In this document: positions 42,799-63,987 of the stretch, piece by piece
Layout: the number at the start of each line of letters is the position of its first letter
Numbering within the stretch: the first letter of the stretch is position 1
Virus record (IMG/VR): IMGVR_UViG_3300020213_000019
Source of the DNA: an uncultured virus (IMG/VR IMGVR_UViG_3300020213_000019)
Lineage: Duplodnaviria > Heunggongvirae > Uroviricota > Caudoviricetes
Reading direction: 5' to 3' (one strand)
Length of the DNA: 64,000 nt
The notes under the pieces: model-generated
Seen by the model: only the letters and a program-made list of their open reading frames with translations
Databases searched by the model: none
Told to the model about the DNA's origin: nothing
Translations under genes and position numbers: made by a program

Positions 42799-43233
42799 AT
42801 GCGTATTGGAATAGTTGGCAGTCGCCGCCGCATATCAAAAGAAGATGAAAAATACATCTTCGATCTGGTTCAGGAACACATTAACGAATTCGGTACAGCT
42901 TCGTTAGTACTGGTATCTGGAGGTTGCCCGGTAGGAGCTGATGCCTTTGCCGAGCGCGCCGCCGATTATTTTGGCGTATCTATATTGGTTCACTATCCAG
43001 TAAAGCTTCCTAAGGTAAAGAGCCGTTACGAGGCAGCTGAGCGCAATTTCGAACGCAATAGAAAGATAGCTCGCGATTCCGATATCGTGTTCGCTGAGAT
43101 TGCTCCGGATAGAACGGGCGGGACAGAGAATACTCTCAAGCATGCTAAAGAATTCAATAAGAAGATCGTACTAATTTTCCCTGATGGCACGCGTCACATC
43201 AGCTACGAGCCAGAGACTTTAGACGAAGTTTAG
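42799..43233 (+). CDS. SLOG/DprA(Smf)-like protein
   Basis: IGIVGSR, VSGGCPVGAD..AE, RNRKIA..SD, TGGTENT. Confidence 0.82.
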   Translation: MRIGIVGSRRRISKEDEKYIFDLVQEHINEFGTASLVLVSGGCPVGADAFAERAADYFGVSILVHYPVKLPKVKSRYEAAERNFERNRKIARDSDIVFAEIAPDRTGGTENTLKHAKEFNKKIVLIFPDGTRHISYEPETLDEV

Positions 43234-43653
43234 TAATTTTTGCATCTCATCTTTGCCGCCATAACGATTGGTGAAGGCATCAATCGTATCGGCTACCGCT
43301 GACGGGCCAAAGATGGCCAAAAATAAGTCTTCTCTTTCAGCGTCTCTTTTGCGTATCTTACGATAAAGATTCATACGCGCCTTGTGTGGCATACCGTATA
43401 TTGCTTTGAATATTGGATCCTTGAACTTCATAAAGTAAGGCCTTTCTAATTGCCAACACAATGAAGCGATAGCAAGATCAAATTGACTGCACTGTTCTTT
43501 GGTAAGCAGGTCTTCATCAAGCAAAGCACCAAAGATATACAGGGCTTTGGACAAATCTACGCGAGCATTAGTGTTGAAGAAAGTGCGCTCTTTTGTTATC
43601 GTTTGAATCGAATTATATGCAAAGAGATAAGATTTGATTTGCTCTGGCGTCAT
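43219..43653 (-). CDS. hypothetical protein, tail QKLLNFV
   Basis: GAGG RBS. Confidence 0.75.
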   Translation of the reverse strand: MTPEQIKSYLFAYNSIQTITKERTFFNTNARVDLSKALYIFGALLDEDLLTKEQCSQFDLAIASLCWQLERPYFMKFKDPIFKAIYGMPHKARMNLYRKIRKRDAEREDLFLAIFGPSAVADTIDAFTNRYGGKDEMQKLLNFV

Positions 43654-43661
43654 AAATTACC

Positions 43662-44048
43662 TCAGCGAAAGTGCCTAACTACCGCAGCTTTATGAGCTAA
43701 CTTCTCAAGTCCGTCTCGACTTACAAGTAACCCGTCTATGCGGTGCTGTTCAGATATGTTAACGGTTATGTTTACAAGCTCGGATTCGTGATTGACTATT
43801 CCGGCCTTACTAGTTTCGTAATTGATATCAATGTAATGAAAATGTTTAAGTTGAACAGCTTCTCGATCGATTCTTTGTGGACCATCCCAAGCAATAGTAA
43901 GCCTAGTTATTGACGCGTGGTAATGACCAAGCGTTTTAGTACATAGAAAGTACGTTTCATTACCAGAGCGATATTCAACATAAATCTTACCACCACATAC
44001 GTAGCAATTTTTTCTTTCTTTTAGAAATTGCTGTAGTGTAATGATCAT
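43662..44048 (-). CDS. CxxC..C..HY family protein
   Basis: CYVCG...CTKTLGHY. Confidence 0.7.
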   Translation of the reverse strand: MIITLQQFLKERKNCYVCGGKIYVEYRSGNETYFLCTKTLGHYHASITRLTIAWDGPQRIDREAVQLKHFHYIDINYETSKAGIVNHESELVNITVNISEQHRIDGLLVSRDGLEKLAHKAAVVRHFR

Positions 44049-44578
44049 AGCAATACTAGAAGCCTTCTAGCACTAGGATCATTACTAAGGAATTCGATGA
44101 GTTCATTTTTTGCTTCTTCTGGTAGAGTTCGCACTAATTTAACAAAATGTTTGCCTTCTATTTTGCGATTAGTTTCCATCAACGATATAATAAAATGCGC
44201 ATTTTTCGTTTTCATTACCATCTGCGATGAGTAACGAATCGCTCGCACTTCACATTTTTTATTCATGACGGACAGGTTGCCAAGAGCTTGTCCGAAAACA
44301 TACGGTCTGCTTTCCATCGAACCTGATTCTTTAATAAAATGACCAAGTTTTCGTAGGACCAAATTGATCGTTTTAGGATCGGCTCTCTTCTTAAAAGATT
44401 TGAACCAGAAATCAGAACTTAATCGCAAAATCAAGTTGTCACGTCTATCCAGAACTAAATCTTCAATAAAGGTAAGATACCTAATATGGTCAGCATATCG
44501 ATTAATGATTTTGTATAATATGTAGACTATGAGCTGGCAGGCTAATACAATAACTACGGTGATTAGCATAATTTTCAT
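44045..44578 (-). CDS. N-terminally anchored protein, tail RRLLVLL
   Basis: TM at N-terminus. Confidence 0.7.
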   Translation of the reverse strand: MKIMLITVVIVLACQLIVYILYKIINRYADHIRYLTFIEDLVLDRRDNLILRLSSDFWFKSFKKRADPKTINLVLRKLGHFIKESGSMESRPYVFGQALGNLSVMNKKCEVRAIRYSSQMVMKTKNAHFIISLMETNRKIEGKHFVKLVRTLPEEAKNELIEFLSNDPSARRLLVLL

Positions 44579-44674
44579 CGTTCAATCACACCTATAACAC
44601 GTAAAGCCAGTCCACAGCTTATCGACAAATGATAAAAAGGATTAAATCTGCTGCTGATATAGCATCTTTATAGA

Positions 44675-45241
44675 ATGACTTTTATTCGTGAATTATCAGA
44701 ATTTGCAGCCAAATACGCCGAGTTGGCCGAGGCTAAAACTACTCCAGTTTTATCTAAACTGGAAATTGTTAAGCGTTTAGAATTGGCCAATAGTCTTATT
44801 GATCAAGACCTTGGGAATATAAAGCAGAACGAAGAAAGACTTCGCGCCGATCAGGCGGATCCTTCCTATCCAGATGAGTCGAGAGGCCAGCTCGGCATGA
44901 ATTTGAAACGCTACGAGGCTTTGCTAGAGTTCGTCTCGCCATCTCGAAGGGGCATGTATGGTCTGGAAGAGTGGCTTGAAAACGCGCTGAGCAAATTGAG
45001 ATCAATCGCTGCCGTTCCAGACATTGATGATCGTCAATTTCTTCGTGCTTTGCGCGCGCACTTCACAACACTCACTGTCTTTATCGGCAAAGAAAAAGGT
45101 CGTTTGGCTCAGGCAGGAATTCGTTTAGATATCGCAGAGCTATACTCTTTGGCGATGATCCGTAAAATAATTGGTCAGCAAATAGATGCGATTAGCAAAA
45201 CTCCAACCGATGCAGCTTCGATATTAAAGTCGGTTCAATAA
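44675..45241 (+). CDS. hypothetical protein
   Basis: Solitary opposite-strand helical ORF. Confidence 0.7.
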   Translation: MTFIRELSEFAAKYAELAEAKTTPVLSKLEIVKRLELANSLIDQDLGNIKQNEERLRADQADPSYPDESRGQLGMNLKRYEALLEFVSPSRRGMYGLEEWLENALSKLRSIAAVPDIDDRQFLRALRAHFTTLTVFIGKEKGRLAQAGIRLDIAELYSLAMIRKIIGQQIDAISKTPTDAASILKSVQ

Positions 45242-45973: not shown

Positions 45974-46114
45974 ACCTAGTTGGTAACGATGTTCGTTTTG
46001 AGGTGTTTTGTCACGAATAGCGTTATTGTCACGCCTCACCTGTTTCATTTGTTTGTTAACATAGTAGCCAATAGTTCAGGTAAGTTACTGTTCATATGAT
46101 CAGTAATTATTGGT

Positions 46115-46155
46115 AAAGAAAAACCCCGCTTCCTATTACCTAGGTCGCGGGGTTT
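46115..46155 (-). terminator. intrinsic terminator
   Basis: AAACCCCGC...GCGGGGTTTTTCTTT on minus strand after 46177 stop. Confidence 0.7.
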
Positions 46156-46176
46156 GGAATTGAACTGAGGTAAAGA

Positions 46177-46581
46177 CTAGGCAGCTTTTTGCGTAAGCTT
46201 TGCAGGTTTTGCAGCAAGTTGCCCGCTTTCGCGCTTAGCGCGGATTTTCTGGCCGCAATGATTGCAACGCGGAACCATGTCTTCTTTTCTCGCCATTTTT
46301 CCTTTGTAAATTCCGCCATTTCGGCCCTTCTGCATCGTGCAGCGATCGTACGATTTGACGAACATCATGACAAACGGGGCACACAACGCCTGGGACAATC
46401 CGAGGAACCGCGCAACCCTTTCTGTAAGGGCCTTGAGCGAGATTTTCTCTCCTTCTTGAAGGTTTTCGATCGCGTGTGCGGTCGCGTCATTCACCTTTAA
46501 AATCACAGAGTTGAGTTTATCCAAGTGAAGTTGAGACACCTTGTTGCTTACTGAGTTAGTCGCAGTGGTAGCCATTGTCAT
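46177..46581 (-). CDS. basic hypothetical protein with CxxC
   Basis: AAGGAA RBS; KGRNGG, RCNHCGQ. Confidence 0.7.
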   Translation of the reverse strand: MTMATTATNSVSNKVSQLHLDKLNSVILKVNDATAHAIENLQEGEKISLKALTERVARFLGLSQALCAPFVMMFVKSYDRCTMQKGRNGGIYKGKMARKEDMVPRCNHCGQKIRAKRESGQLAAKPAKLTQKAA

Positions 46582-46784
46582 CGTTCCTTGTTGGTGGGTA
46601 AAGCTCGTCACGGTTTCGATCGAATATTCGCCCGAGCGTCCCCCATACACGTGCAAACCAGAGGCCAGTTTGGAATGGCGTCGAAACAGTTTTCCCCAAT
46701 GTCAGAAACACAGTAATGGATTGGGCACGAATGTCATGCGTTCTTTGTCATCGCTAGAAAAGTAAGCTCGGGAAACCGAAATAA

Positions 46785-47081
46785 TCAAGTCATGATTAGA
46801 AGGCGCTCACAAAGAGACATTCTGCCGTACGGTTTTATGGTCCCGTTTACATGGGCTACCTGCGTACTATTCAGATAAACGGCCGCAATTTTGGCATGAG
46901 TAAACATCGCCATGTATTTCTTACAGTGTTCACACTGTGCGTAAATACAGTGTTCATCTAGACCGACTATCTCATCAGAGATATTTACCCATTTGTGACG
47001 TGATGGCTTTACAAGCTCACATTGTAAATAATCAGAAAAGATAGTTTTCCAATTTAACTGAGGATTAACAGGCGTTTGCAT
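46785..47081 (-). CDS. LGH-like family, tail CERLLIMT
   Basis: RHKW..CEHC..C(-8). Confidence 0.7.
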   Translation of the reverse strand: MQTPVNPQLNWKTIFSDYLQCELVKPSRHKWVNISDEIVGLDEHCIYAQCEHCKKYMAMFTHAKIAAVYLNSTQVAHVNGTIKPYGRMSLCERLLIMT

Positions 47082-47335
47082 AAGGTTTTTTCTTTATCTA
47101 CTAATTGAATACTTATGTTTTTCTTTGTCGTGAATTTCACTTGGCCGATGACGATCCCCTCTGCTGTATAGAGGGCATTCATTTCGCTGTTGAACCGTAG
47201 CACATCCCCACACCTTGTGCATTGGGCCGGGTACTCAAGCCAACCGTACGCATAAGCTGGAGGAAGTATTTTCAGCTTATGCCGAGTGACAGCCTCAGCT
47301 TTTACATAGATATCTTTGATTGATACTGTTTTCAT
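47054..47335 (-). CDS. LGH-like family, tail CKRLLILS
   Basis: RHKL..CTRC..C(-8). Confidence 0.7.
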   Translation of the reverse strand: MKTVSIKDIYVKAEAVTRHKLKILPPAYAYGWLEYPAQCTRCGDVLRFNSEMNALYTAEGIVIGQVKFTTKKNISIQLVDKEKTLCKRLLILS

Positions 47336-47973
47336 TTCATGACTAGAAGCTTTTGTACTTGCGGATATGCTTCTAGTTTTTTGATCAATAATTCCCAGCT
47401 GATATCGTCATCTTTTTCAATGGCAGCACGGGCACGTACCAGTTTGTAGAATGGTACTGGGTTGGTCAGATGAATATTGGAAGCTAGCAATGCTTTTGAT
47501 CCGGGCATGTTTTTTTCAAACGCCAGAAGAAGAGGAGCATCAATATTTATTCGTTTGGAATGAGTCGAGTAAAGCGACGAGGTAATTTTGAACAAATCGG
47601 TAAGTATAGAGCTTGCTAAGTTGCATGCTGATGTACTGTTTATGTTACCGATACCCATCAAGTTCTTGCCGTTGGCCTCGCCATCTCTTAGTTTGAGCAT
47701 GTAATCAAATGCTTTATCTAAGATTTTATTAGCCGTATCTTCAGCAAGCGCCTTTGTGTTTAAAAGAATACCCATATCTGTTATGAAGTTAATTGCTCTT
47801 AAACTTGTGTTTATGAACGTAATAACTTTATAAATATCGGTACTGCTACTATGAACAAAAGCGATTCCGTTGTCTGTTCGACTACTTACAGGGAATCCGG
47901 GTTTACCCAGCGCATCTTTAGATGCTGCCAACCTAAACTCATTGAATTTTTTTATAGTGTCTTTACCGATCAT
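47332..47973 (-). CDS. hypothetical protein, tail QKLLVMK
   Basis: 213-aa ORF. Confidence 0.75.
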   Translation of the reverse strand: MIGKDTIKKFNEFRLAASKDALGKPGFPVSSRTDNGIAFVHSSSTDIYKVITFINTSLRAINFITDMGILLNTKALAEDTANKILDKAFDYMLKLRDGEANGKNLMGIGNINSTSACNLASSILTDLFKITSSLYSTHSKRINIDAPLLLAFEKNMPGSKALLASNIHLTNPVPFYKLVRARAAIEKDDDISWELLIKKLEAYPQVQKLLVMK

Positions 47974-48016: not shown

Positions 48017-48334
48017 TCATAACATATTAGTAAATCTAGTACATAGGCTTTTTTCGTTACCAACGAATTTAGAAAGGTTACTGCCTGCGAACTCACCAAG
48101 AACCATTTCGCCAGCTACCACTTCCCATATATAGATTGCTTTATTGTTCACAGAGCGTAACGATTTTTGAAGCCTTATTTCTCTTTTACATGATTCGCAT
48201 TTGGTTTGAAGTCTTGGAGAAATATGCGGTCTAGGCCCAACAATCCATTCGCCTGGTTTGTGACCTAATTTTTTAATATGCATCAGAGCGTTGTCTTTTA
48301 GCTCATTTATTATTTTAAGTTCTTCTTCGTTCAT
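48017..48334 (-). CDS. LGH family, tail CTRFTNML
   Basis: KLGHKPGEW..CESC..C(-8). Confidence 0.75.
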   Translation of the reverse strand: MNEEELKIINELKDNALMHIKKLGHKPGEWIVGPRPHISPRLQTKCESCKREIRLQKSLRSVNNKAIYIWEVVAGEMVLGEFAGSNLSKFVGNEKSLCTRFTNML

Positions 48335-48340
48335 GGTAAC

Positions 48341-48784
48341 CTATAAAAATGAAGCGAATTTCGGACAGTAAGGAATGTTCTCTCTATTGATCGTAACATC
48401 TTCTAAAAATCCTTTACTAATACCGAAAGACAAATAAGGTGTCCAAATACTATTGGCTTTGTTAGAATTTACTACACCTACGTTATAGTGTTTCCACTCT
48501 GGATTAGGGGCCGAGCACATCTCGGCGCCAATGTTTATTCCACAGCGACCACAAATAACGCTTGTACATAAGAATGTTCGGCCAGGATGACCAACGTTCA
48601 ATGATTGATTTATAGCTGTAAATTTGTGATATCGTTTGTCGAAATATTGCCTCAACAGATACGACATAACTTCATTCGATTCCCACTCTGGATTTATTGC
48701 GTGAACAGTCGACCACGCTTCGTTGAAGTATTCTCTGTCTAAGGCCATTTGTGAAGTATCTGCAAGCATCGTAATGCTACTCAT
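48341..48784 (-). CDS. LGH-like family, tail CPKFASFL
   Basis: RYHKF..CGRC..C(-8); TGTCGAG at 48800-48806(-). Confidence 0.75.
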   Translation of the reverse strand: MSSITMLADTSQMALDREYFNEAWSTVHAINPEWESNEVMSYLLRQYFDKRYHKFTAINQSLNVGHPGRTFLCTSVICGRCGINIGAEMCSAPNPEWKHYNVGVVNSNKANSIWTPYLSFGISKGFLEDVTINRENIPYCPKFASFL

Positions 48785-48810
48785 CAGTTCCGATGATCAC
48801 TCGACACGTC

Positions 48811-48852
48811 AAAAGAAAAAGGGCGGCGAGCTTTTTGGTGCTCGCCGCCCTT
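48811..48852 (-). terminator. intrinsic terminator
   Basis: GGGCGGCGAGC-loop-GCTCGCCGCCC-TTTTTCTTTT on minus strand. Confidence 0.8.
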
Positions 48853-48869
48853 GAGATAGTCTTTTGTTT

Positions 48870-49232
48870 TCAGAAAATATAACGTCGTGGGGCGACTGTA
48901 TTGGCTTCGTTACCAGATTTTGGCTCCTTGTCATCAAAGGCGCCCGTTTCTTCCTGGATATTTATCACATCGCCGAGGTCAAATTCATTGACCCAAGCAA
49001 TAGCCTCTATATCATCAATGATGACTTCGCAAAGTGCCGGAAGGTTCATCATCTGAAATTCAAGAGACAGAAGCTCGCCAGCTTCGCTGGGTGTAGGTGC
49101 GGGTGGGATCATGCAGTACCGACCAGAAGCCGGACCCACAATAGGAGCTGATTGCTCCTCTAAACGAATTGCCTTCAACTTTCGCTGGGATATCCTTGTA
49201 GGGATATCAGTTGGTACTGGTTTAGATTTCAA
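48870..49232 (-). CDS. hypothetical protein
   Basis: Flanked by TGTCGAG (49274) and a terminator. Confidence 0.6.
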   Translation of the reverse strand: MKSKPVPTDIPTRISQRKLKAIRLEEQSAPIVGPASGRYCMIPPAPTPSEAGELLSLEFQMMNLPALCEVIIDDIEAIAWVNEFDLGDVINIQEETGAFDDKEPKSGNEANTVAPRRYIF

Positions 49233-49337: not shown

Positions 49338-49712
49338 TTAAGTCAAAACTTTGAGTCGTTCGCAAATGAAAAACGGGTCCGGTTTCTGATCCATGTGTGA
49401 TTCCCAAATTGTAGTAATTACAGGCCTTTGCATGACAGATTTTTGGTCCATCTCAGCTATGAGAGGGTTATGCGTAAACGTGCGCACATCGGTCATCTGC
49501 ACGTGACTTAGCTTTATTTCCGAGTCTCCAGCAGATTGAATGCCAAACTGCGTATGACAAGTCAGGCATTTGCTGACGTGCGTTATAGACATACCTATGG
49601 AAATACCGCTAAGTTTCCAATCAGTAAGTTTATGTCCCAAACGTTTAAGTATCACGGTTGCAATGGTAATCATACTATCACCATAGTCATTCAAGTGAAA
49701 TTCTGCATGCAT
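49338..49712 (-). CDS. LGH family, tail CERLKVLT
   Basis: KRLGHKLTDW..CLTC..C(-8). Confidence 0.75.
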   Translation of the reverse strand: MHAEFHLNDYGDSMITIATVILKRLGHKLTDWKLSGISIGMSITHVSKCLTCHTQFGIQSAGDSEIKLSHVQMTDVRTFTHNPLIAEMDQKSVMQRPVITTIWESHMDQKPDPFFICERLKVLT

Positions 49713-50068
49713 GAGCAGTAAGTTTCGCGCGGAATTTGAAGGTATATGCTTCGGTTTTTGTTAAGCTCATTGGTAATTCTATCCTCCATACCTTCCAGAT
49801 TAGCGTCTTCTTCTGAATCTTCACTATCTTTGAACGTGACCTCAATGAGTCCAGTGGTTTCGTAATCTCCAGCCTTCATGGCGAACATTGAATAAAATTC
49901 ATTGTGCTGCTTAAGTCCAAAGATCAGACTGCACCCTTGTTTCGTGCAGGAACAGTGAGCAATGGAATTGAAAAGAGGGTTAGTAGACTCGGCCCATTCA
50001 CATGGTTCATGCCCGATACGACGCAGAACGTTGTGACATACGCGCTTCATAAGCTCTTCGCGTTTCAC
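49691..50068 (-). CDS. LGH family, tail CSCMQNFT
   Basis: GTG start overlapping upstream stop; RRIGHEPCEW..CTKQGC. Confidence 0.7.
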   Translation of the reverse strand: MKREELMKRVCHNVLRRIGHEPCEWAESTNPLFNSIAHCSCTKQGCSLIFGLKQHNEFYSMFAMKAGDYETTGLIEVTFKDSEDSEEDANLEGMEDRITNELNKNRSIYLQIPRETYCSCMQNFT

Positions 50069-50403
50069 ATTAGTAACTCCAGTTTTTGCGGGACGATCTT
50101 GTAACCTAGGCATTCTAATTCTTGGTCTACTACCCGCTGCGCATGCTGGACATCCACTTTCCACCCTAGTCCGCGGCTCCCGATTTCCAGGCTTAGTGCA
50201 GGAAAAGTACCCTCTATTTGTTTCTGACACATTATGGAGTGGGAGTCCCATAGGAAAATCGCCCACGACCACTGGAGTGATGCTGGTGTTCTTAAAGTTA
50301 AAGTTGCGCATGTCACCCTAATTTTCTGACCAAAAGCTTCTCGATAAAAATGTTTGTAATGCTGCTCTTCGGCAGCCTCATGCCAAGGTAAGGCTAACAA
50401 CAT
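50065..50403 (-). CDS. family C protein, tail QKLELLM
   Basis: AQRVVDQELECLGYKIV block. Confidence 0.7.
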   Translation of the reverse strand: MLLALPWHEAAEEQHYKHFYREAFGQKIRVTCATLTLRTPASLQWSWAIFLWDSHSIMCQKQIEGTFPALSLEIGSRGLGWKVDVQHAQRVVDQELECLGYKIVPQKLELLM

Positions 50404-50406: not shown

Positions 50407-50922
50407 TCACAACCACGTTCTTATTTTCTGGCAATAGTATTTCTGCTTGATCGTAGACAGCTTTCGCTTGATCACTTCGTCGGGGTCGGGGCCTTCTTCG
50501 TCGTCAGGTAATGGAGTAGCGCCAGGTTTAACAAGCTGAAAGAGATAGTTGGTTAAAGCATTAGTAGTATTGAAGTCTCTCGGGCCCAACATACAAATAG
50601 TCTTTTTACTCACTTTAGGACCCGTGTCCCATTTCCATGCTCGCTCCACCTCGCAGGCTGGCTCTACAACGATTTCTACAAGGTTCCAGTCCTGTTTCCA
50701 GAAGCGACCAATCTGAGCCTCCTTGGACACACCAGGGTCACCACAGATGGCGAATGGTTTCTTGCAATGGCGACAGAAGGCAGTCAGCTGCATTCCGGGC
50801 CATGAGAATGTTTCAAGCCAGTTATCAGTCGGTAAGGCATGACCAAGCTTGCGAAGAATATATCGCGAATACTTGATGAGACTTTCTTTTGAAGCGCCTA
50901 TGTTTTCTTTATCTTCGTTCAT
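50407..50922 (-). CDS. LGH family, tail CQKIRTWL
   Basis: RKLGHALPTDNW..CRHC..C(-8). Confidence 0.75.
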   Translation of the reverse strand: MNEDKENIGASKESLIKYSRYILRKLGHALPTDNWLETFSWPGMQLTAFCRHCKKPFAICGDPGVSKEAQIGRFWKQDWNLVEIVVEPACEVERAWKWDTGPKVSKKTICMLGPRDFNTTNALTNYLFQLVKPGATPLPDDEEGPDPDEVIKRKLSTIKQKYYCQKIRTWL

Positions 50923-51263
50923 ATCATCACCATAAGTCGATCATCAATTACTTTAATTCCAGATTTTATCATCTCGTCATCAATTAGTTTTTTAGCTTCA
51001 TCAATGCTGTTAGCGTATCCATAACTAACGGCAGCTATCAAGTTGCTGTTTACCCTTGGGTATTGGTATCCAAACAAATCATTATCTTCAGGCCAAATCT
51101 GTGGAGCCCAATCTTTACTGGCTTGGTGAATGCTTGAATGACTTTCCTCATTCAAAGGATCATCGGACAACCGAAGGTCCCGATACCACATGAAGCTCAT
51201 ATTAACTGAAAAATTAGGCCTTTTTTGCCTTTTTTTAAAAAGACAAAGGTCTTCTCCATCCAC
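50919..51263 (-). CDS. family C protein, tail DRLMVMI
   Basis: AKKLIDDEMIKSGIKVI block. Confidence 0.7.
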   Translation of the reverse strand: MDGEDLCLFKKRQKRPNFSVNMSFMWYRDLRLSDDPLNEESHSSIHQASKDWAPQIWPEDNDLFGYQYPRVNSNLIAAVSYGYANSIDEAKKLIDDEMIKSGIKVIDDRLMVMI

Positions 51264-55021: not shown

Positions 55022-55043
55022 ATGGTTAACCAGCTATATAGGT

Positions 55044-55328: not shown

Positions 55329-55815
55329 GATTCAAAAGGCTCCGCATTTTGCCGATGATTTTATCCAAGGAACTATCGAACTTAACAACGCGTTCGAATA
55401 CGACCTGAAGGCCATCGCACTGAATAAGAGTGTCTTCTGAATGTACGAATACTGAACCGCTACCAATATCGATCGTTCTGTAGCATATTTCAAAATAAGC
55501 ATTCCCTTTGCGATACATGCGCATATCCCACCGCCTACACTCATCACCAACTACATTGGCGTCAGGGTAAGTTGCGCTGGGCCCTACCAAATAATGCTCT
55601 TCCTCGAACCGCTGATAGAAATGACTAGAGGTCATTTCTGATTCAGGCGGTTGCCATGGAGCATAAAGATGCTTTCCTTTACCAGGAATAGAATCAATGC
55701 AATATAAGATACGAGTAAAGTATCTTTTACGGGTAGAACATGATTGACTGGCATCACCAACAGGACCGTTACATATGGGGCAATAACCGAAAGCTGTTTT
55801 ATCTGTCCATTCCAT
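55321..55815 (-). CDS. CxxC..HY family, tail RSLLNLT
   Basis: CPICN..C..HFY. Confidence 0.75.
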   Translation of the reverse strand: MEWTDKTAFGYCPICNGPVGDASQSCSTRKRYFTRILYCIDSIPGKGKHLYAPWQPPESEMTSSHFYQRFEEEHYLVGPSATYPDANVVGDECRRWDMRMYRKGNAYFEICYRTIDIGSGSVFVHSEDTLIQCDGLQVVFERVVKFDSSLDKIIGKMRSLLNLT

Positions 55816-56333
55816 TATGTGAAGTGGAGAAGGCGCTTCGCTTTATTGTAGACTTCTGTATAATTGTCTACAGTTAGCTTTCCAGGATTCCAGATGCCAG
55901 GCACATTTAGAGTGCGCCAATTACCTTTGGCCGTTACCTCTGTCAGATCAGTATCGCTTACTACTTCGCCGGGTCGTACTTTTGCACTATGGGTATATTC
56001 AACCAGCAATAAGTATTTAGACGGATGAGTCTCTGCTTGTTTAACACGATGCTCTTGTCTATAGGCAACTCTATGAGAGTTCATCTTCATTTTCATGAAT
56101 TTATGAGTCACTTCAAAGAAATGAGCTTTTGACTGATGAGATGAAAGGATGTTCTTCCTGGCAGGATATTTACCGCATAAGCGAACCAATTTACGGTTGT
56201 CGATGCGATTATCGGAACCATCCTTTTCGATGAAGTCGATTAATGCAGAATTGCAGATCGGGCAAGTCTCACGATAGAGAGGAAAGCAATCGGGACTAAA
56301 CACGCTTCCGGGCAGACAGGGTACAAACGACAT
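55815..56333 (-). CDS. CxxC..HY family, tail KRLLHFT
   Basis: CPICN..C..HFF. Confidence 0.75.
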   Translation of the reverse strand: MSFVPCLPGSVFSPDCFPLYRETCPICNSALIDFIEKDGSDNRIDNRKLVRLCGKYPARKNILSSHQSKAHFFEVTHKFMKMKMNSHRVAYRQEHRVKQAETHPSKYLLLVEYTHSAKVRPGEVVSDTDLTEVTAKGNWRTLNVPGIWNPGKLTVDNYTEVYNKAKRLLHFT

Positions 56334-56345: not shown

Positions 56346-56717
56346 TCACTTAAGGTGTGATAATCTCTCTATGTTATGCATCGTAGTTTCTATGTCAATG
56401 AAATCTTTCACAACATAATGAAAATCATAATTGCTATGACCATTATAGAAGATTGTCATTTTAGGCTCACCTGTAACTCTACTGTGTTGCCTATACTCTA
56501 TTTCTAATCGATCTATACTGCCTTCATAGTCTTCTGTTTCAATCCAAATAGTTTGAACTGATGGTCCGTTAGGGAAAATTTTTAGTCGCTCTGTAAAATG
56601 AGCAAAGCTGAGGTCCCTACAATCTCGGCTAAAATGCTCTTTAGGTGTTCTAAACCATTCCTCTAATGGCTTGGTGCACACCGGGCAGTGTTCGTATGTA
56701 ACGATCGTTTCAACCAT
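56346..56717 (-). CDS. CxxC..HY family, tail ERLSHLK
   Basis: CPVCT..C..HF. Confidence 0.75.
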   Translation of the reverse strand: MVETIVTYEHCPVCTKPLEEWFRTPKEHFSRDCRDLSFAHFTERLKIFPNGPSVQTIWIETEDYEGSIDRLEIEYRQHSRVTGEPKMTIFYNGHSNYDFHYVVKDFIDIETTMHNIERLSHLK

Positions 56718-56719: not shown

Positions 56720-57112
56720 CTAGGACATCAGCGTAACAAGTTTTTGAAATGAATGGTATTTTTTAACAACGCCATCGATAGATGAGTCGTTAATCTCTAC
56801 ACTACGTTTGCTAGGGAATTTTTGAATCAAAAAAGCATCACTTCGATCTGGATTACGATAGCTCATTCGTTCAATGGAGAAACATAATGCTGCATGTTCG
56901 TAATCGTCATACGAGAATACTTCTACCATTTCGTTCATTCTAATGCAAACGTAGTAGTGTGAGTATGATAAATATTCAGTATCGTAATCGTAATCTTCGT
57001 TAAGCATCAAACAGGATCGTTCACTGTTTGAATAAAAATGTTCTTTGGGCGGCCCTAGTGATGATGCGCATATAGGACACCGAGCTGGTAGGTCTTGTAA
57101 ATCGAAATTCAC
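56720..57112 (-). CDS. CxxC..HY family, tail QKLVTLMS
   Basis: CPICA..C..HYY. Confidence 0.75.
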   Translation of the reverse strand: MNFDLQDLPARCPICASSLGPPKEHFYSNSERSCLMLNEDYDYDTEYLSYSHYYVCIRMNEMVEVFSYDDYEHAALCFSIERMSYRNPDRSDAFLIQKFPSKRSVEINDSSIDGVVKKYHSFQKLVTLMS

Positions 57113-57453
57113 AAAAACACCTTTGCTTTTTCCAGCCTAGACCAATCATTGGTAATAACGAATCTAGTCAACAGTTTTTCATCCATGCCAACGAAGCTGG
57201 CAATACCTATCATGACAGAAGCAACTATTTCTCGCCTCCAGCTCATACTGGTTTGCTGGTGTTTAATAACAACACTACGACTGTTACCCTCTATGGTATA
57301 CATGCCTACGTATATTTTAGCCTCGGCCTCTATTGTTTTATTGAAGTCACTTAATTGTATTGGGCCTTGACGTAACTCATAGTGACATGATTTGCACGGC
57401 TCGGTGATGCAAAAATCGTCTATGTTGTCACATATTGGGCAACGAAAATTCAT
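57109..57453 (-). CDS. CxxC family, tail EKAKVFL
   Basis: CPICD..CKSCHY. Confidence 0.72.
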   Translation of the reverse strand: MNFRCPICDNIDDFCITEPCKSCHYELRQGPIQLSDFNKTIEAEAKIYVGMYTIEGNSRSVVIKHQQTSMSWRREIVASVMIGIASFVGMDEKLLTRFVITNDWSRLEKAKVFL

Positions 57454-57803
57454 GCAAGGATTGCCCATTTAATGTAGTTATAAATGAAGAACATAATCTC
57501 TGCATCTGAAGCAAGACGTTTGAAGTATTTTGGTTTCGACAAACCGCCAGTGAAATTTACCATAGTTATGTTTGATGGAGAATATCTCGCAACAGATATG
57601 GGACTTACTCTATCGTTGAAATACTCTCTGTAATTACTGCCATTTTTCATGATTACAGCCATATAGTGAGGCTGAATATCATCACCGCATTTAAGAGAAT
57701 ATTCTTTATCAGAAAAGAAGTTAACTTTATTTATCGGCGCGTGACAGACAGGGCACGTAAAACCAGCGCACGACATAAACTCGGGAGTATCTTTTTCATT
57801 CAT
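57450..57803 (-). CDS. CxxC..HY family, tail IKWAILA
   Basis: CPVCH..C..HY. Confidence 0.75.
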   Translation of the reverse strand: MNEKDTPEFMSCAGFTCPVCHAPINKVNFFSDKEYSLKCGDDIQPHYMAVIMKNGSNYREYFNDRVSPISVARYSPSNITMVNFTGGLSKPKYFKRLASDAEIMFFIYNYIKWAILA

Positions 57804-58117
57804 AGCATGACCAATAATTTTTTACATCGATTAATGGCATATAGGATATCTTCAAATTGAGTCTGGCCAGTTTTCATAATAACTAAACCGTCATATTTGA
57901 TTTTAGTTGTATTATCAGAAAAACGACGGTTTAGAGTTATATGCCCTACCTTTGTAAAGTCAGAATGAACACCGAATCGTATGTAATGAGAACTATAATT
58001 TTTAGAAAGCGGGTCACAAGACTTAGCCTCTTTGCTTCGTTTACACGCAAAGACAGGCTCTCCTCCGAAAAGGTCGCCCTCAGTTAATTCAGATTTACAT
58101 ATAGGACAGGTTAACAA
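57800..58117 (-). CDS. CxxC..HY family, tail KKLLVML
   Basis: CPICK..C..HY. Confidence 0.75.
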   Translation of the reverse strand: MLTCPICKSELTEGDLFGGEPVFACKRSKEAKSCDPLSKNYSSHYIRFGVHSDFTKVGHITLNRRFSDNTTKIKYDGLVIMKTGQTQFEDILYAINRCKKLLVML

Positions 58118-58413
58118 AGAACTCCTAATTTAGAGAGTCCAGTTATGTATCTCAACATATCGACATCTTTGATGTTTGGTTTTACAGTTTTGACCAGAGA
58201 TTCGTTAATGTAAATTTTAGTTTCTATAGGACCAGTGCCCAATAGTTTTCGATGAATCATTACATTATTTACGAGTTAGAAATCTTCGGTAATTCCAACG
58301 TCGAAAATAACGGCGCGGTAATGATCGGGCGTAGGCGTACTGGTCGTACAGTGACCACCCATTCTTGGATATCCACTATAAGTTAAGGGCGCCCCACATA
58401 GAGGGCACTTCAT
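58111..58413 (-). pseudogene. CxxC..HY family member with internal TAA, tail SKLGVLC
   Basis: MKCPLCG..C..DHY..EDF* then the same frame continues; stop at 58276-58278. Confidence 0.75.
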
Positions 58414-58715
58414 GCCATTACCTGCAATCGTTTGTAACGTTTACACATTACAGTGAACTCTTCATCGTTAATGTAACGATTGATTTGAAAACAAACGGTA
58501 CTGTTGCTGTATACGATTGTCCAATTGATAGCGCGATTTCTACTTATCAAGCATATACCGTAATGCATACTATCGTTTCTAAGTACGCAGATTTGATCTA
58601 ATTTCCTGCTGTACCGATCACTGATACGATACCCGCATCGCTCACACAAGTATTCATCTAAGTGCTGTTCAGCCACCGTTTTTTGCATCAAATTAGAACA
58701 AAGCAAACATTTCAT
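58410..58715 (-). CDS. CxxC family, tail KRLQVMA
   Basis: CLLC..CERC. Confidence 0.75.
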   Translation of the reverse strand: MKCLLCSNLMQKTVAEQHLDEYLCERCGYRISDRYSRKLDQICVLRNDSMHYGICLISRNRAINWTIVYSNSTVCFQINRYINDEEFTVMCKRYKRLQVMA

Positions 58716-59107
58716 TATATGAATGTTGCCAGCTTTGGAATACGTTTTAAGTAACTCTTTATTTCATCAAGACAAAGTATTCTTTGAAAATTAGAGAACT
58801 GTTTAGCCTGAATGTAAACGCCCGTAGTTTTTCCAGATACATCTACATGCACTTCACATACATCAGTGTAATAATATTCCGATTCTTCATCGTATATTTT
58901 ACCTCTTGATTCACCACGAACAAGAACGATTGAATACTCGCCTTGTAATCCACCAAGATAAGAGACTTGACGCGCGCAGCACCAGCTTGATGACCACAAC
59001 GATGAACCATCATGCTCGTATTCGAGCATCAGATCATCTCCACACAGCGGGCATGCCTGCTTGGAAGGAGGCGTGATTTGCTGAGGCCTTATGAAGCGGT
59101 GCGTCAT
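58715..59107 (-). CDS. CxxC family, tail PKLATFI
   Basis: CPLCG..CC. Confidence 0.75.
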   Translation of the reverse strand: MTHRFIRPQQITPPSKQACPLCGDDLMLEYEHDGSSLWSSSWCCARQVSYLGGLQGEYSIVLVRGESRGKIYDEESEYYYTDVCEVHVDVSGKTTGVYIQAKQFSNFQRILCLDEIKSYLKRIPKLATFI

Positions 59108-59108: not shown

Positions 59109-59420
59109 TTAAAGCAAAACGGAAAGTTTTTCTAATTCATCAAACTTATCCCACCACTTACGAAAGTCGCGGGGCTTCAGTTTCATAAGTAATCCAATCC
59201 CTATATTGACAACTTGTTCTTCTACAGAGTTCGAGTTTTCACGGCGTATCGTCGTCTTGGTATTATCGCCTCGAATTTCGTAACGACCGATCTTTCGATA
59301 AACTTTACAGTATTCGGCGCTGTCTTTGGTATGTTTTTTACTTTCAAGCTCACTATCATTCCAAAGATTACAAACAAAACAATACAACATCATGCTGCCG
59401 TGACAGATAGGACATTTCAT
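59109..59420 (-). CDS. CxxC family, tail EKLSVLL
   Basis: CPIC..CFVC. Confidence 0.75.
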   Translation of the reverse strand: MKCPICHGSMMLYCFVCNLWNDSELESKKHTKDSAEYCKVYRKIGRYEIRGDNTKTTIRRENSNSVEEQVVNIGIGLLMKLKPRDFRKWWDKFDELEKLSVLL

Positions 59421-59782
59421 AACATTGGCCCCAGTCTAGAATAGCTATGAAACATGGCAACGAATTCCTCATCTGTTACCGCCCTATCTAATTGTAACAG
59501 ATGCCTGTGTACACCAAACCAAGCTGATGTTTGACTGGAACTATCTACACTACGTTGTACTTCGAATCCATTAATAAAAATGAAGTCAGTAAACCAATGA
59601 CCAAACCCTGATAATTCATCTGCTTGCAAAATCATATGAATGGTGTAATGTTTAGTTGAGCACTGAGCTATAATGATTCCTCGCTGTGTTAAGTTGTATT
59701 CGTTTTCCTTAACAAAGATTTCGATTCCGCACAACTTACACCAAAGCTGCGGTACCGGAAGTATCGGATCTATGTCAGACAT
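59417..59782 (-). CDS. CxxC..HY family, tail SRLGPML
   Basis: CKLC..CSTKHY. Confidence 0.75.
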   Translation of the reverse strand: MSDIDPILPVPQLWCKLCGIEIFVKENEYNLTQRGIIIAQCSTKHYTIHMILQADELSGFGHWFTDFIFINGFEVQRSVDSSSQTSAWFGVHRHLLQLDRAVTDEEFVAMFHSYSRLGPML

Positions 59783-60126
59783 AATAGCCTTTTATATTTT
59801 TGACACAGTTCATATAACTCGCTGTCAGATATGCAGTAATCCATACTATCAAGTTCCCAGGCGCTCTTTGTAATGACGGTCCTGGTTTTGAAAATCGATG
59901 CGACATTGGCGTCTCCGCCTACGCGGAAGTTTCTTGTAATTTCAAATGGCCCCACAACCGTCATATCAACCCATCCGGTACTGGTCTTGCTGCGAGCGTA
60001 GTGAGCGTAATCCGTCGATTCGCCATTTGTGCATATAGTATGCAGCGCCGCTGTGGTATTTTCTACATTACGACCGTTGCTATCGCGAAGTATCGAATCA
60101 CATACTGGGCAGATGATGTCAGTCAT
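59770..60126 (-). CDS. CxxC..HY family, tail KRLLCLT
   Basis: CPVC..C..HY. Confidence 0.75.
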   Translation of the reverse strand: MTDIICPVCDSILRDSNGRNVENTTAALHTICTNGESTDYAHYARSKTSTGWVDMTVVGPFEITRNFRVGGDANVASIFKTRTVITKSAWELDSMDYCISDSELYELCQKYKRLLCLT

Positions 60127-60467
60127 TTCAATATAGTTAGTTTGATGCATCGTTTTACAGTATCTCTGACCTCTTCGTCAGATAGAATCCGATCATATTT
60201 CTTTACGTAATCAATTGAGGTTTCGTAATCGTATATAACGACTTTGCCAGACATGACAATATCAGACATTTTTCTTTCGAAATGCCTACGAACACAATAG
60301 CCATCTGCGTCTGCAAAGTCTATTATGAGAATTTTTCGATACTTAGAAACATGACATCGATAATGCTTCTTCGGGCATTCAAAGACAGCAAAGGCTTCAT
60401 GGCTTCGGGTCATGTAAGTCATTATATTTTCATCCTGAAGACTTACGCCACACATCACGCATCTCAC
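60123..60467 (-). CDS. CxxC..HY family, tail IKLTILK
   Basis: CVMC..CPKKHY; close paralog of next gene. Confidence 0.75.
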   Translation of the reverse strand: MRCVMCGVSLQDENIMTYMTRSHEAFAVFECPKKHYRCHVSKYRKILIIDFADADGYCVRRHFERKMSDIVMSGKVVIYDYETSIDYVKKYDRILSDEEVRDTVKRCIKLTILK

Positions 60468-60895
60468 AACATCACCATTAATCTTTTTAGATTATGGCGT
60501 TTGTATTTCTCTACAAGTTTTAGCATTTCTTCACGAGTAATTATTCTCTTGATGGTAAGCCTAAGATGTTCTGTATTACCGAAAGTAGCGGTATCTCTAG
60601 GTATCACATCGCTAAAGCCTAGCTGAAAAAACCTGCGCACACAGAAGTCTTCTGCATCTGCAGAATCGTTCTCTATCTGCATCGGCCCGATGGGATCGAC
60701 TTCACTATAGTACACTCGGTAATGTTTACTAGGGCATTCTAATATAAAGGGTTCGCGTTCGCGTCTAGTATACCCTTCTCGTTCAAGAGGTAACGCACAA
60801 ACCAAACACGTACCAGACAGACGACTGGGCCAAATTATGGTATTTGGCCCAATGACGGTTGGTTTAAAGAACCAGCCTATTATTCGTTTAATCAT
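60464..60895 (-). CDS. CxxC..HY family, tail KRLMVML
   Basis: CLVC..CPSKHY. Confidence 0.75.
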   Translation of the reverse strand: MIKRIIGWFFKPTVIGPNTIIWPSRLSGTCLVCALPLEREGYTRREREPFILECPSKHYRVYYSEVDPIGPMQIENDSADAEDFCVRRFFQLGFSDVIPRDTATFGNTEHLRLTIKRIITREEMLKLVEKYKRHNLKRLMVML

Positions 60896-62239: not shown

Positions 62240-62624
62240 TCATGACATTAGAAGTACCGTGTCGACGAATCGTCTAGCGGTTTTGATTGTGAGCAAATCA
62301 ATATCTTTACGATACTGAATTGAAACTTCCTGAGAAGCACCTGACGTAGCATGTGGTTTCTTGTATATAGTGATGTAGGCGAAAGTTCTTTTTCCACCCC
62401 ACTCTTTGTGAAAGTAAACATTTAAGTCTGGCCAATAAATTTGGAGACTCACTGTACTACCTTTACGATTCAAAGTCTTTAGAAAGCCGTTGGTGCCGTG
62501 ATAGCATACGCACGGGTAAGTAAATTGATACGCCATCAAATTTGGTAAGCATCATGAAGTCGCTGGCGTGCGATTCCACTCCGCGCATAGGCTGACCGCA
62601 ATGAATACAACGATGATGTATCAT
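62240..62624 (-). pseudogene. frameshifted CxxC family member, tail DTVLLMS
   Basis: MIHHRCIHCGQPM.. (ATG 62624) and ..YPCVCYHG..LLMS* lie in different frames. Confidence 0.55.
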
Positions 62625-62854
62625 GTTAGGATCATTAATTTTTTGAATCGAGTAAGTAAAGATATAAGGACAGGCAATTCGTGCAAATCGATCGAGCACA
62701 TAACCGTATAAGGAACCCAGCTGTACGTTCCAGTGTTGCCGTTTTCTAGCCATGATTCTCGATGTATTGTAAATGAGCGCTCATGGTATTTGAGAGTTGC
62801 TACGAACCGATAATCTTTATTATCCTGTTGATATGGGCTACTTTCAATCTTCAT
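62621..62854 (-). CDS. hypothetical protein, tail KKLMILT
   Basis: ATGA-coupled. Confidence 0.7.
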   Translation of the reverse strand: MKIESSPYQQDNKDYRFVATLKYHERSFTIHRESWLENGNTGTYSWVPYTVMCSIDLHELPVLISLLTRFKKLMILT

Positions 62855-63156
62855 AGCAATACCAGTAAGCTTGGATTATTTATTAGATGGCGTAGCCGCT
62901 CGTCAGACATGTAGTAATTTAATATATGATGGTTAGCGAAGGATGGAGAAATGATACGACTTCTCGGCGCGGTGCCAATATTGAATCTGGCTATTTCAAT
63001 CGTGGGACGAATGGTATGGTCACGATAATAAAGAGCATTAGCTCCGTAAGAAGAGGCTGTATAAAAAGCACTGAAACCGCAGTAGCCACAACTGCTAGCT
63101 ACAAATTGTTCCGACGTTATGTCTTCCATCGGCTGAAAACAATAAATACAGTTCAT
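62851..63156 (-). CDS. CxxC family, tail PSLLVLL
   Basis: CIYC..CGYC. Confidence 0.72.
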   Translation of the reverse strand: MNCIYCFQPMEDITSEQFVASSCGYCGFSAFYTASSYGANALYYRDHTIRPTIEIARFNIGTAPRSRIISPSFANHHILNYYMSDERLRHLINNPSLLVLL

Positions 63157-63392
63157 ATTAGATTCAGTAGCCCTATTGCTTTTTTGAAAAGTTTTCCCAA
63201 TGGAACAAGCTCTCCGAATGGGATATAAAACCGATTATAAAACCGATTATCATCGAATGGTGACGTGTACCATTTATTGGTTACATCGTTGAAATATTCT
63301 TTGGTTAGACAGATTCTTTGGTCATCTTTGTCTACGTCCAAACAATATCTAAGCCGGGACTCTCCAATCCTATATTCTTGATACCATTTCAT
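63153..63392 (-). CDS. hypothetical protein, tail IGLLNLI
   Basis: ATGA-coupled. Confidence 0.7.
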   Translation of the reverse strand: MKWYQEYRIGESRLRYCLDVDKDDQRICLTKEYFNDVTNKWYTSPFDDNRFYNRFYIPFGELVPLGKLFKKAIGLLNLI

Positions 63393-63787
63393 TGGAATAA
63401 TAAAATCCTTTTTGCCCAGGTATGAATTTCTTCAGAAGTCATTAATGTTAGCTTCTTAAGTTTATCAAGTTTGATCACCGGGCTACGAGAACCAAGGAAC
63501 ACCTGATTGTCATACTCCTTACTTTCCAATGCATAAATGTATGTACCGACTTCTCCATAAGCTGAGCCAGGTTTTATGTAATTGTTAACGACACGACAAT
63601 CGGAGTAAGTTAATGCAATCTGTATTGTGTTACTTCCGGCCGTTACCATTTCTTGATAGCCCGCCATTGCTCTGCCGGAGTCGATATACATTTTGCAATA
63701 GCAAGTCATTTCAAACTGAAATGAATCAGATACGACCCACTCGCATTGAGCGCCACAATGAATACCAGCCCTTTTAGGATGCTTCAT
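63389..63787 (-). CDS. hypothetical protein, tail KRILLFQ
   Basis: ATGA-coupled. Confidence 0.7.
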   Translation of the reverse strand: MKHPKRAGIHCGAQCEWVVSDSFQFEMTCYCKMYIDSGRAMAGYQEMVTAGSNTIQIALTYSDCRVVNNYIKPGSAYGEVGTYIYALESKEYDNQVFLGSRSPVIKLDKLKKLTLMTSEEIHTWAKRILLFQ

Positions 63788-63987
63788 TTGAACAGCATTA
63801 ATCTTTGAATCCACTTCTCGATCTCTGGACCAGTCCGCCCAGACAAATCTAAAGCCTTGGTAAAATGAAGCACCTTTTCATGAGCTATTGTTTCATAAAA
63901 CAATCCATATACGTTATGTTTGTATATGGTTCTGTAAATGCTAGTCTCTAACGGTCCCCACAGATTAGTATAGTTGATACTAATCAT
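63784..63987 (-). CDS. hypothetical protein, tail QRLMLFK (start uncertain)
   Basis: EI..W..R..LF tail shared with the downstream gene. Confidence 0.6.
   Translation of the reverse strand: MISINYTNLWGPLETSIYRTIYKHNVYGLFYETIAHEKVLHFTKALDLSGRTGPEIEKWIQRLMLFK

Follow-up and report, generated by a model that had tools for sequence, protein, structure and literature searches.

Why should gene after gene in one region of a phage genome, coding for small proteins that are otherwise unlike one another, close with the same few residues? The question is raised by a 64-kb stretch of DNA from an uncultured giant phage of the Caudoviricetes (IMG/VR record IMGVR_UViG_3300020213_000019), here called the window, in which many proteins encoded between positions 43219 and 63987 (the block) share a C-terminal tail with a basic residue at -6, leucine at -5 and leucine, methionine or phenylalanine at -2, counted back from the stop codon. 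An initial annotation had noticed this tail from the sequence alone, attributed it to about 50 proteins and proposed that it could serve an adaptor or targeting system. We found that the enrichment of the tail is real and far beyond chance, and we discuss here what kind of selection keeps it, which proteins carry it and to what it could bind.

Register and enrichment of the tail

Genes were called mechanically, as greedy non-overlapping open reading frames (ORFs) of at least 40 amino acids (aa), which gave 112 genes in the window. Their ends were compared with a strict pattern ([KR]L..[LMF].-stop), with a relaxed one derived from the motif of the initial annotation ([KR][LIFMYV]..[LMF].-stop) and with a loose one ([LIFM]..[LMF].-stop). 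The strict tail is present in 24 of the 112 genes, that is in 20 of the 47 block genes (start at 43219 or later) and in 4 of the 65 found elsewhere; a 25th strict case, 63784-63987, falls outside the gene set through the overlap rule. Relaxed tails were counted in 33 genes (25 in the block) and loose tails in 41 (31 in the block). The original list proved largely correct, as 21 of its 22 tails inside the block and all 5 outside it were found again by eye, while the figure of about 50 proteins stands with loose patterns only and is overstated with respect to the strict count.

About 0.2-0.6 strict tails would be expected by chance in 112 genes. The five-residue core occurs 58 times in the 19,399 positions of the window proteins, and 24 of these occurrences are located exactly one residue before the stop; the counts at offsets 0 to 12 are 0, 24, 1, 2, 1, 0, 0, 0, 0, 0, 1, 0 and 1. 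The core frequency calculated from composition is 0.0015 per position, and even at p = 0.0055 the probability of at least 24 such ends in 112 genes is 6e-31. Among shadow ORFs, those not chosen in the gene call, the strict tail was found in 3 of 270.

The same register was observed in a related 435-kb phage, a 434,688-bp IMG/VR contig (G001) that was found via its RNR protein (79% identical to the RNR of the window, the next best match being at 60%) and analysed as a whole, with 688 called genes. Strict tails end 33 of these genes and relaxed tails 64, with concentrations at 20-60 kb and at 340-380 kb, and the relaxed core, counted by offset from the stop, gives 1, 64, 9, 8, 9, 5 and so on. 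The fixed distance to the carboxyl end, which was central to the initial proposal, is therefore a property of both genomes.

We also evaluated the ends of the 47 block genes with a measure that does not depend on any pattern, the information per position over the last 12 residues. Peaks were found at -8 (0.74 bit), -6 (0.83), -5 (1.23), -4 (0.67), -3 (0.65) and -2 (1.31), and values were close to zero further upstream and in three control jumbo phages, where the profile is flat. Counts of strict tails in control jumbo phage contigs gave 0 of 301 genes (252 kb), 0 of 304 (183 kb) and 2 of 457 (309 kb). Two further controls were taken from loci around RNR genes of other phages (15 strict tails in 1575 genes) and from loci around an unrelated fibre domain (2 in 1521); the latter came from the matches of the window fibre protein, which concern a widespread short domain only.

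Concerning the residues used by the block genes, Arg stands at position -6 in 16 of the 47 and Lys in 12, with Gln absent from the eight commonest residues listed; position -5 is Leu in 26; position -2 is Leu in 16, Phe in 10 and Met in 10 (36 of 47 together), followed by Asp in 2 and by a single Val, His, Ala and Ile; position -1 is mostly Leu or Thr, and Ala in 3. The genes encoding RNR, PhoH, Map, ThyA, DHFR, IMPDH, dUTPase, both exonucleases and the fibres are devoid of the tail, exactly as was first stated.

A motif repeated at gene ends could also be the shadow of a nucleotide signal, for instance one that serves translational coupling or ribosome binding, a promoter or a recombination joint. 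ATGA overlaps with the next start are indeed frequent (10 of the 33 window tail genes) and the middle base of the -2 codon falls on a T-rich position upstream of starts. However, each of the six Leu codons is used at -5, in proportions that match the background (chi-square p = 0.25 in the window and 0.31 in G001), and the codons of Lys/Arg(-6), compared with the background, gave p = 0.30 in the window and 0.018 in G001. Moreover, the tail is anchored to its own stop and occurs at every class of distance from the following gene, namely ATGA overlaps, other overlaps and gaps of 0-20, 21-100 and more than 100 bases, and also before a convergent gene. The latter case is 43219-43653, which converges on 42799-43233 and has no same-strand gene downstream. 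This role had been assigned initially to 55044-55328, which is a weak example, having Ala at -5; the longest version of that ORF (54867-55328) overlaps a rIIA-like gene, and the gene call kept the minus-strand ORF 55034-55297 instead. Shine-Dalgarno-like words are weak in this genome, being found in 25 of 112 upstream regions versus 8.5% of random sites. Because codons vary as the background does and the tail is independent of the start of the next gene, selection acts on the protein; the chi-square tests and the distances to the next start agree with what had been proposed from codon variation. The motif is tied to its own stop codon; coupling or a ribosome-binding site is close to excluded, and the nucleotide explanation in general close to refuted.

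Protein families that carry the tail

The proteins were grouped into families by trimming their last eight residues and then performing iterated profile searches over the window and G001. Two families were obtained, here called LGH (26 members, 11 of them in the window) and CPxC (19 members, 15 in the window). The 97 relaxed-tail proteins of both genomes fell into 63 clusters, with sizes of 19 and 12, five pairs and 56 singletons. When the LGH and CPxC profiles were compared with each other (hhalign), only the CxxC knuckle was aligned, with a probability of 6.7%. No common body is thus detectable among the carriers, in agreement with the several unrelated scaffolds described at first sight. 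Some singletons possess a Cys at -8 or a CxxC, and these may be LGH relatives that escaped detection.

The LGH members of the block, encoded on the minus strand as are all the block genes mentioned below, include four with a strict tail: 46785-47081, where it follows Cys(-8), 47054-47335, whose G001 ortholog (33% identity) keeps it, 49338-49712 and 52361-52939. The tail is relaxed in 48017-48334 and 48341-48784, both with Phe at -5 (the first has a G001 ortholog, 37% identical, with a strict tail), and in 51732-52265. Variant tails are present in 49691-50311, which has Cys(-8), in 50407-50922, where Trp at -2 is conserved in 5 orthologs of different phages, and in 51277-51759, which lacks Lys/Arg at -6. 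One more member, with Cys(-8) and a variant tail, lies outside the block at 7924-8439 on the plus strand. The 23 aligned LGH sequences all have the same His, CxxC pair and Cys(-8) (23/23); such a H-C-C-C set is typical of a zinc site, and from the alignment Cys(-8) looks like a zinc ligand.

The LGH profile was searched against 1.84 billion representative proteins and gave 55 matches at E <= 0.001. The tail was checked in the 32 matches of at most 262 aa, the other 23 being long multi-stretch proteins of 284-6458 aa. In 31 of these 32 a Cys is followed by exactly seven residues before the chain ends, while the remaining one is a truncated copy of a window protein; 18 come from neither of the two genomes. 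The alignment of a conserved LGH subfamily, used as a query, found G001 only among viral contigs, and among metagenome contigs only those that carry the window's protein in a 100% identical copy. Contigs of 81 kb and of at least 122 kb exist for the phage of the window.

CPxC proteins have an N-terminal CPxC knuckle and an invariant third Cys, often followed by a His. In the window a strict tail ends 55815-56333 (a near-identical metagenome variant keeps it), 56346-56717, 57800-58117, 58410-58715, 58715-59107, 59109-59420, 59417-59782, 59770-60150, 60123-60467 and 60464-60895, the last two being paralogs with 32% identity. Variant tails end 55321-55815 (Ser at -6), 57109-57468, 57450-57803 and 62851-63156, while in 56720-57112 the tail is displaced by one residue. 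The profile of this family matched the window's own proteins plus one near-identical variant in which the tail is kept. Two genes of CPxC type look split, 58276-58413 with 58111-58260 and 62463-62753 with 62240-62539; in each pair the zinc-ribbon ORF comes first and the tail-end ORF next in another frame, which could be due to a frameshift, a pseudogene or an assembly error. The 49-aa ORF 58111-58260 has a strict tail and may be the C-terminal half of a split gene, with 58276-58413 as its zinc-ribbon half.

The remaining carriers of the block are a 144-aa protein (43219-43653, the last gene of the minus-strand block, with a strict tail and no Pfam or PHROG match), a 177-aa protein with a hydrophobic N-terminus and a strict tail (44045-44578), whose G001 ortholog (29% identity) also has a strict tail, a 213-aa singleton with Pro at -10 before a strict tail (47332-47973), for which no look-alike was found in the ESM Atlas, and two further singletons with strict tails, of 114 aa (50919-51263) and 77 aa (62621-62854). 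At the end of the block are located a 79-aa protein with a variant tail, Gly at -6 (63153-63392), a 141-aa protein with a relaxed tail, Ile at -5 (63389-63814), and the already mentioned 67-aa strict case (63784-63987).

Outside the block, strict tails were found on the plus strand in singletons of 137 aa (1108-1521), 122 aa (8563-8931) and 112 aa (8947-9285), and on the minus strand in a 148-aa singleton adjoining DHFR (31629-32075). Relaxed tails are present, on the plus strand, in a 91-aa protein after RNR (7652-7927), G001 having tail genes at the matching place after its RNR, and in a 192-aa protein beside Map (14524-15102), with Tyr at -5 as in its G001 ortholog (24% identity).

Carrier lengths range from 49 to 381 aa. 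The longest is a patatin-like protein with a relaxed tail, which may well be a chance match. Among the clearly different carriers are the protein with the hydrophobic N-terminus, the 213-aa protein with Pro before the tail and two paralogs in the tubulin operon of G001. These paralogs, L170:6238-6933 and L170:6941-7360 (231 and 139 aa), are located directly 3' of a tubulin/TubZ-like gene and share a 20-residue C-terminus ending in the strict tail.

The comparison with G001 gives an indication of how these proteins evolve. G001 is collinear with the window and its enzymes are 50-79% identical to those of the window, whereas just 5 window tail proteins have an ortholog detectable by BLAST in G001, at 24-37% identity. 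In all five pairs the tail is kept by both partners, including the Trp-containing variant. No G001 ortholog was detected by BLAST for most window tail genes, the whole CPxC array included. A 159-aa protein without the tail, 46177-46656 (minus strand), sits amid the tail-gene arrays in both phages and is 57% identical between them. As the enzymes are so similar and the tail proteins so diverged or unrecognisable, these comparisons show that the bodies turn over very fast and the tail stays. The scan of relatives that the initial annotation had recommended gave the same picture, as both G001 and the metagenomic relatives retain the tail.

The tail as a putative docking helix

AlphaFold models were calculated for one member of each family from shallow alignments (23 rows for LGH and 19 for CPxC). 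The LGH protein 49338-49712 (pLDDT 73) is predicted to have an N-terminal helix, a four-stranded sheet, a low-confidence stretch, a Cys and a short helix (118-123) over the tail, and the CPxC protein 60123-60467 (pLDDT 85) a zinc ribbon and a six-stranded sheet, the tail being part of a C-terminal helix of 17 residues (97-113). The CPxC alignment and model support the earlier remark that the tail is often the end of a helix with a S/T-D-E-E cap. Foldseek and VIA searches with the two bodies gave nothing above noise: the best Z for CPxC was 6.0, with a LolA-like curved sheet, and the best for LGH was 5.6, with weak WRKY-like Foldseek matches at E ~1.

In the 97 tails, hydrophobic residues occupy -8, -5, -2 and -1, polar residues or no particular type are found at -7 and -4, and charged residues are absent from -3 (Val 35, Asn 14, Ile 13). 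At -2, Met is found in 40 of 97; at -1, Leu is found in 36 and Lys in 18; at -8, Cys or Leu in 49 of 97; at -9, Leu, Ile or Val in 35 of 97. Read towards the carboxyl end, the consensus starts at -8 with a hydrophobic residue or Cys and goes on with Lys/Arg (-6), Leu/Phe/Tyr (-5), a residue without charge, in most cases Val, Ile or Asn (-3), and Met/Phe/Leu (-2), after which a single further residue closes the chain. These tolerances fit one face of a helix and not a strand.

A basic amphipathic helix at the C-terminus is also what MinD and FtsA use for membrane targeting, and the tail might in the same way bring its carriers to the inner face of the cell membrane. The net charge of the last 12 residues is +1.78 for the tails, compared with +0.59 for the non-tail genes of the same genomes and +0.44 for the control jumbo phages, and the helical hydrophobic moment over the last 11 residues is 0.35 versus 0.27-0.28. 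Such a moment is modest, however, and lipid binding needs neither four fixed positions nor an exact distance from the end, so membrane targeting appears to us very unlikely.

The reading that we prefer, although tentatively, is that a library of variable early proteins uses the tail, as a constant docking helix, to reach one common partner. We infer a handle acting in trans on a single hub because the tail is constant on bodies that are unrelated or diverged beyond recognition, has a conserved basic residue and stops strictly at the chain end. It is possible to hypothesize that a short, portable, terminus-anchored amphipathic helix is held constant while the bodies evolve very fast, and that each member of a library of variable, mostly zinc-binding small proteins would be plugged by its tail into the hub; the targets of the tail proteins would probably be host or defence components, attacked at an early stage of infection. 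At a second level of guessing, the hub could be a protein-unfolding or degradation machinery, with the tail proteins as its adaptors or timed substrates, since G001 encodes a ClpP pair, a Cdc48-like AAA ATPase, trigger factor and DnaJ, with no ClpX detected; overall, a protease or unfoldase hub seems unlikely.

Several observations weigh against a docking helix. No partner was found for the tail. In both models the tail lies within a confident terminal helix (pLDDT 74-90) and there is no flexible leash. In the LGH family Cys(-8) completes the H-C-C-C set, and packing of the tail on its own domain is therefore possible; in CPxC proteins the hydrophobic residues of the tail, as read from the alignment, continue the 3-4 spacing of the whole 17-residue helix. 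Acidic residues at the start of a helix and basic ones near its end stabilise helices by themselves. Finally, a six-frame search of G001 found no MIT domain, ClpX zinc domain, beta clamp, ClpS or Hsp70, and therefore any hub of this kind would have to be provided by the host.

The main rival explanation follows from some of the same observations: the role of the tail would be structural, all carriers being descendants of a small ancient zinc protein in which the C-terminal helix closes the fold and the tail packs on its own body. Scaffolds that seem unrelated would then be relatives too diverged to recognise, and there would be no need for a receptor. The predicted terminal helix holds the tail in both families, and zinc knuckles, an antiparallel sheet and a last helix are common to them. 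Cys(-8), as fourth ligand of the H-C-C-C set, is general in LGH and in its library relatives, and many singletons have a CxxC or a Cys(-8); furthermore, because these genes diverge so fast, the failure to find homology between carriers is weak evidence. On the other hand, hhalign found no body homology between LGH and CPxC, and the tail is also present on the protein with the hydrophobic N-terminus, on the 213-aa protein with the preceding Pro and on the 139- and 231-aa proteins of the G001 tubulin operon. A conserved Lys/Arg(-6) of exposed type and a strong preference for Met(-2) would be unusual in a private core, and the exact chain end, one residue past the last hydrophobic position, is kept throughout. 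A purely structural role is possible but, in our opinion, doubtful.

If the tail is a docking helix, known systems suggest what its partner could be. PMC7804408 describes the ClpX zinc domain as a place where SspB, RssB, trigger factor and substrates all dock, and SspB-type adaptors combine a variable substrate-binding body with a C-terminal ClpX-binding peptide that docks on this domain (PMC12373786 and PMC7804408). Three SspB genes, from three genomes, end in ...[AST]-L-K-R-V-K, with Leu at -5 and Val at -2. The phage tail resembles this arrangement in that a short C-terminal peptide would tether a body to a hub, and the Leu(-5)/hydrophobic(-2) register is shared. However, SspB is one protein and here we have a library of 50-60, and the SspB peptide, placed on a long flexible linker, works anywhere, whereas the phage tail keeps a fixed distance from the stop and forms, in the models, the last part of a helix. 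The XB peptide of SspB is reportedly carried on a flexible linker and bound as an extended strand (2DS8 work).

The tail could then mimic a ligand of a host ring machine, whether a SspB-type ClpX-binding tail, a sliding-clamp tail or a C-terminal degron. The register is that of real SspB tails, and the lineage possesses ClpP, trigger factor and Pol III alpha, with no ClpX or clamp detectable in G001. Nevertheless, the tolerances fit a helix and not an alternating strand, no flexible linker precedes the tail in either model, and the clamp motif starts with Gln where Lys/Arg is found in 28 of 47 block genes. In addition, the SspB peptide is reported to bind wherever it is placed (PMC12373786), and therefore the fixed chain end is not explained. 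Mimicry of this type is improbable. A co-fold of two copies of E. coli ClpX 1-61 with zinc and the last 37 residues of 49338-49712, made with the family alignment and no control runs and with E. coli as a stand-in for the host, gave a score of 0.02 and a mark of 0.32, which speaks neither for binding nor against it.

Clamp-binding tails are known from T4, where gp43, gp55 and gp33 bind gp45, and the bacterial beta-clamp motif starts with Gln. Also in this case short hydrophobic C-terminal peptides lead several proteins to one ring, but the clients are a few replication and transcription proteins, compared with dozens of orphan proteins here, and position -6 is occupied by Arg and Lys instead of Gln. 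PF00712 and PF02768 had no match in G001, although a clamp of the host could still be used. HbYX tails of proteasomal ATPases have a penultimate Tyr, which is absent from the eight commonest residues at -2 in the block, and ssrA-like degrons for ClpX end in two small residues of Ala type, whereas the block genes prefer Leu, Phe or Met at -2 and rarely have Ala at -1.

Another comparison concerns the MIM1 helices of ESCRT-III, which have the consensus [DE]xxLxxRLxxL[KR] and bind to the AAA ATPase Vps4 through its MIT domain (PMC12057046). MIM1 is a C-terminal amphipathic helix, and its last six places would correspond to tail positions -6, -5, -2 and often -1. In the phage tails, however, the upstream hydrophobic residue is at -8 more often than at -9, and MIM1 is located near the chain end, not exactly at it, as the CHMP1B peptide cited in the same source stops short (PMC12057046). 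The MIT profile PF04212, searched in six frames against the 434,688 bp of G001 as the only genome covered, had no match at E <= 0.1.

The receptor of MIM1 is the N-domain of an AAA ATPase, and G001 encodes a 443-aa AAA protein (L177:6529-7860) that has a 200-residue N-domain without assignment and one classic AAA domain, with VAT/Cdc48 as best PDB matches (E 2e-37). The C-terminal tail of this protein includes Ile-Gly-Leu, which recalls the ClpP-docking loops of ClpA and ClpX. G001 also possesses two adjacent ClpP genes (L177:16758-17405 and L177:17415-17999). In our reading one of them lacks the catalytic Ser and His, as does ClpR, the inactive form found in cyanobacteria and plastids. Apart from this pair, a third gene has a weaker likeness to ClpP. 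On the 3' side of the pair are encoded a 120-aa and a 518-aa protein of no recognised family; the 120-aa ORF was considered as ClpS-like and rejected, PF02617 giving no match, and the 518-aa protein has no relative in Pfam or PDB. Only 66 of the 688 G001 genes have a match in three other jumbo phages, which is uninformative for finding a hub. From these genes one could imagine a recruitment system of the phage's own, in which more than 50 rapidly diversifying target-binding modules per genome, each ending in the same docking helix, would bring the host or defence proteins that they hold to a single hub, maybe a hybrid unfoldase-protease made of its own ClpP pair and the AAA ATPase, but this we consider rather unlikely.

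Among phage proteins, SPO1 Gp53 is a host-takeover protein that works as an adaptor-like modulator of ClpC/ClpCP, being small, early, directed at a host AAA+ protease and encoded in a cluster of small takeover genes (PMC6873191). It differs from the case discussed here because it is a single protein whose neighbours have no shared tail, with no library and no phage-encoded ClpP. In poxviruses, ankyrin/PRANC receptors, like F-box and SOCS-box receptors, join variable modules to a constant C-terminal docking module for one hub. Their docking domain is folded and of about 40-50 residues, while the phage tail has 7-9, and the likeness is in logic only. The tail system resembles in logic substrate-receptor libraries (F-box, PRANC) and single adaptors such as SspB, and lacks defining features of most of the tested families. 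Searches of the open-access literature found no prior description of such a phage tail.

Genomic surroundings and meaning of the tail

Searched as DNA, with the block and the fibre genes, the window had no match in 50,697 phage records, nor did the sigma-like factor used as a protein query against the same collection. Pfam and PHROGs identified a sigma-70-like factor, an intein-bearing RNR, a PIN-PhoH protein with a LAGLIDADG insert, Map, ThyA, DHFR, IMPDH (best matches at 34-45% identity), dUTPase, a papain-like peptidase, two RNase T-type exonucleases, TnpB and a rIIA-like protein; over the 47 block ORFs (43219-63987) the rIIA-like gene was the only one with a significant family. A tRNA scan of the window found none. 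The rIIA-like gene (53849-55021, minus strand) stands between the LGH array and the CPxC array and has no tail; its product of 390 aa has a GHKL ATPase N-part and covers just the first 212 of the 725 positions of the rIIA profile. No relative of it was found in viral contigs or in G001, and the protein collection contains distant or short-contig relatives only.

The RNR large subunit (3650-7528, 1292 aa) has an intein with a HNH domain, the G001 ortholog being of 833 aa without the insert, and PIN-PhoH (9999-12341, 780 aa) corresponds to a G001 ortholog of 431 aa without the LAGLIDADG insert. ThyA (34555-36009, 484 aa) is matched by Pfam in two stretches, which makes an insertion likely, and has no BLAST homolog in G001. 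A full-length TnpB of IS605 OrfB type (32663-33988, minus strand, 441 aa), which as a query found no relatives in genome contigs, is accompanied by a second TnpB fragment (53-412, plus strand) with the C-terminal TNB domain only. Both copies share identical sequence around the heptamer TGTCGAG, pointing to a repeated IS-derived element within the phage.

This heptamer is present in 14 copies in the window, versus about 6 expected, and none of 100 shuffles reached 14. Its sites include 28-34, 2888, 26516, 37752, 42381, 48800, 49274, 52968, 61928 and 62070, besides others. It is always on the locally transcribed strand; 9 of the 14 copies are intergenic and precede a gene start by some tens of bases, and two belong to the TnpB repeat. 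The heptamer may serve the phage as a promoter or another regulatory element. Terminator-like structures, each a GC-rich hairpin with a T run behind it, are located within the tail-gene array at 46021-46176 and 48785-48869, after genes 46177-46656 and 48870-49232 respectively.

The gene set of G001 includes Pol III alpha, trigger factor, DnaJ, peptide deformylase, EF-Tu and S21- and L7/L12-like proteins, together with a PARP-like protein accompanied by an ADP-ribosylglycohydrolase, several RNA ligases, two Thg1-like genes and an Acb1-like 2H phosphoesterase.

If the tail proved to be structural, it would still define two new zinc-binding families expanded in uncultured megaphages. If it is a docking handle, it marks a fast-evolving set of effectors that amounts to about one quarter of the window genes and about one tenth of the G001 genes, and could show how very large phages organise host takeover or counter-defence. 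A peptide of 10 residues would then be a direct hook for the shared hub, turning about 100 orphan genes into a testable system. Should the tag recruit its carriers to one bacterial machine, it would be of use wherever protein recruitment or degradation is to be engineered in bacteria. A recruitment system, if true, would be the bacterial-virus counterpart of the F-box and PRANC libraries and a natural analogue of engineered bacterial degraders, and a hub for degradation or recruitment, if found, would have almost no precedent of its category among phages.

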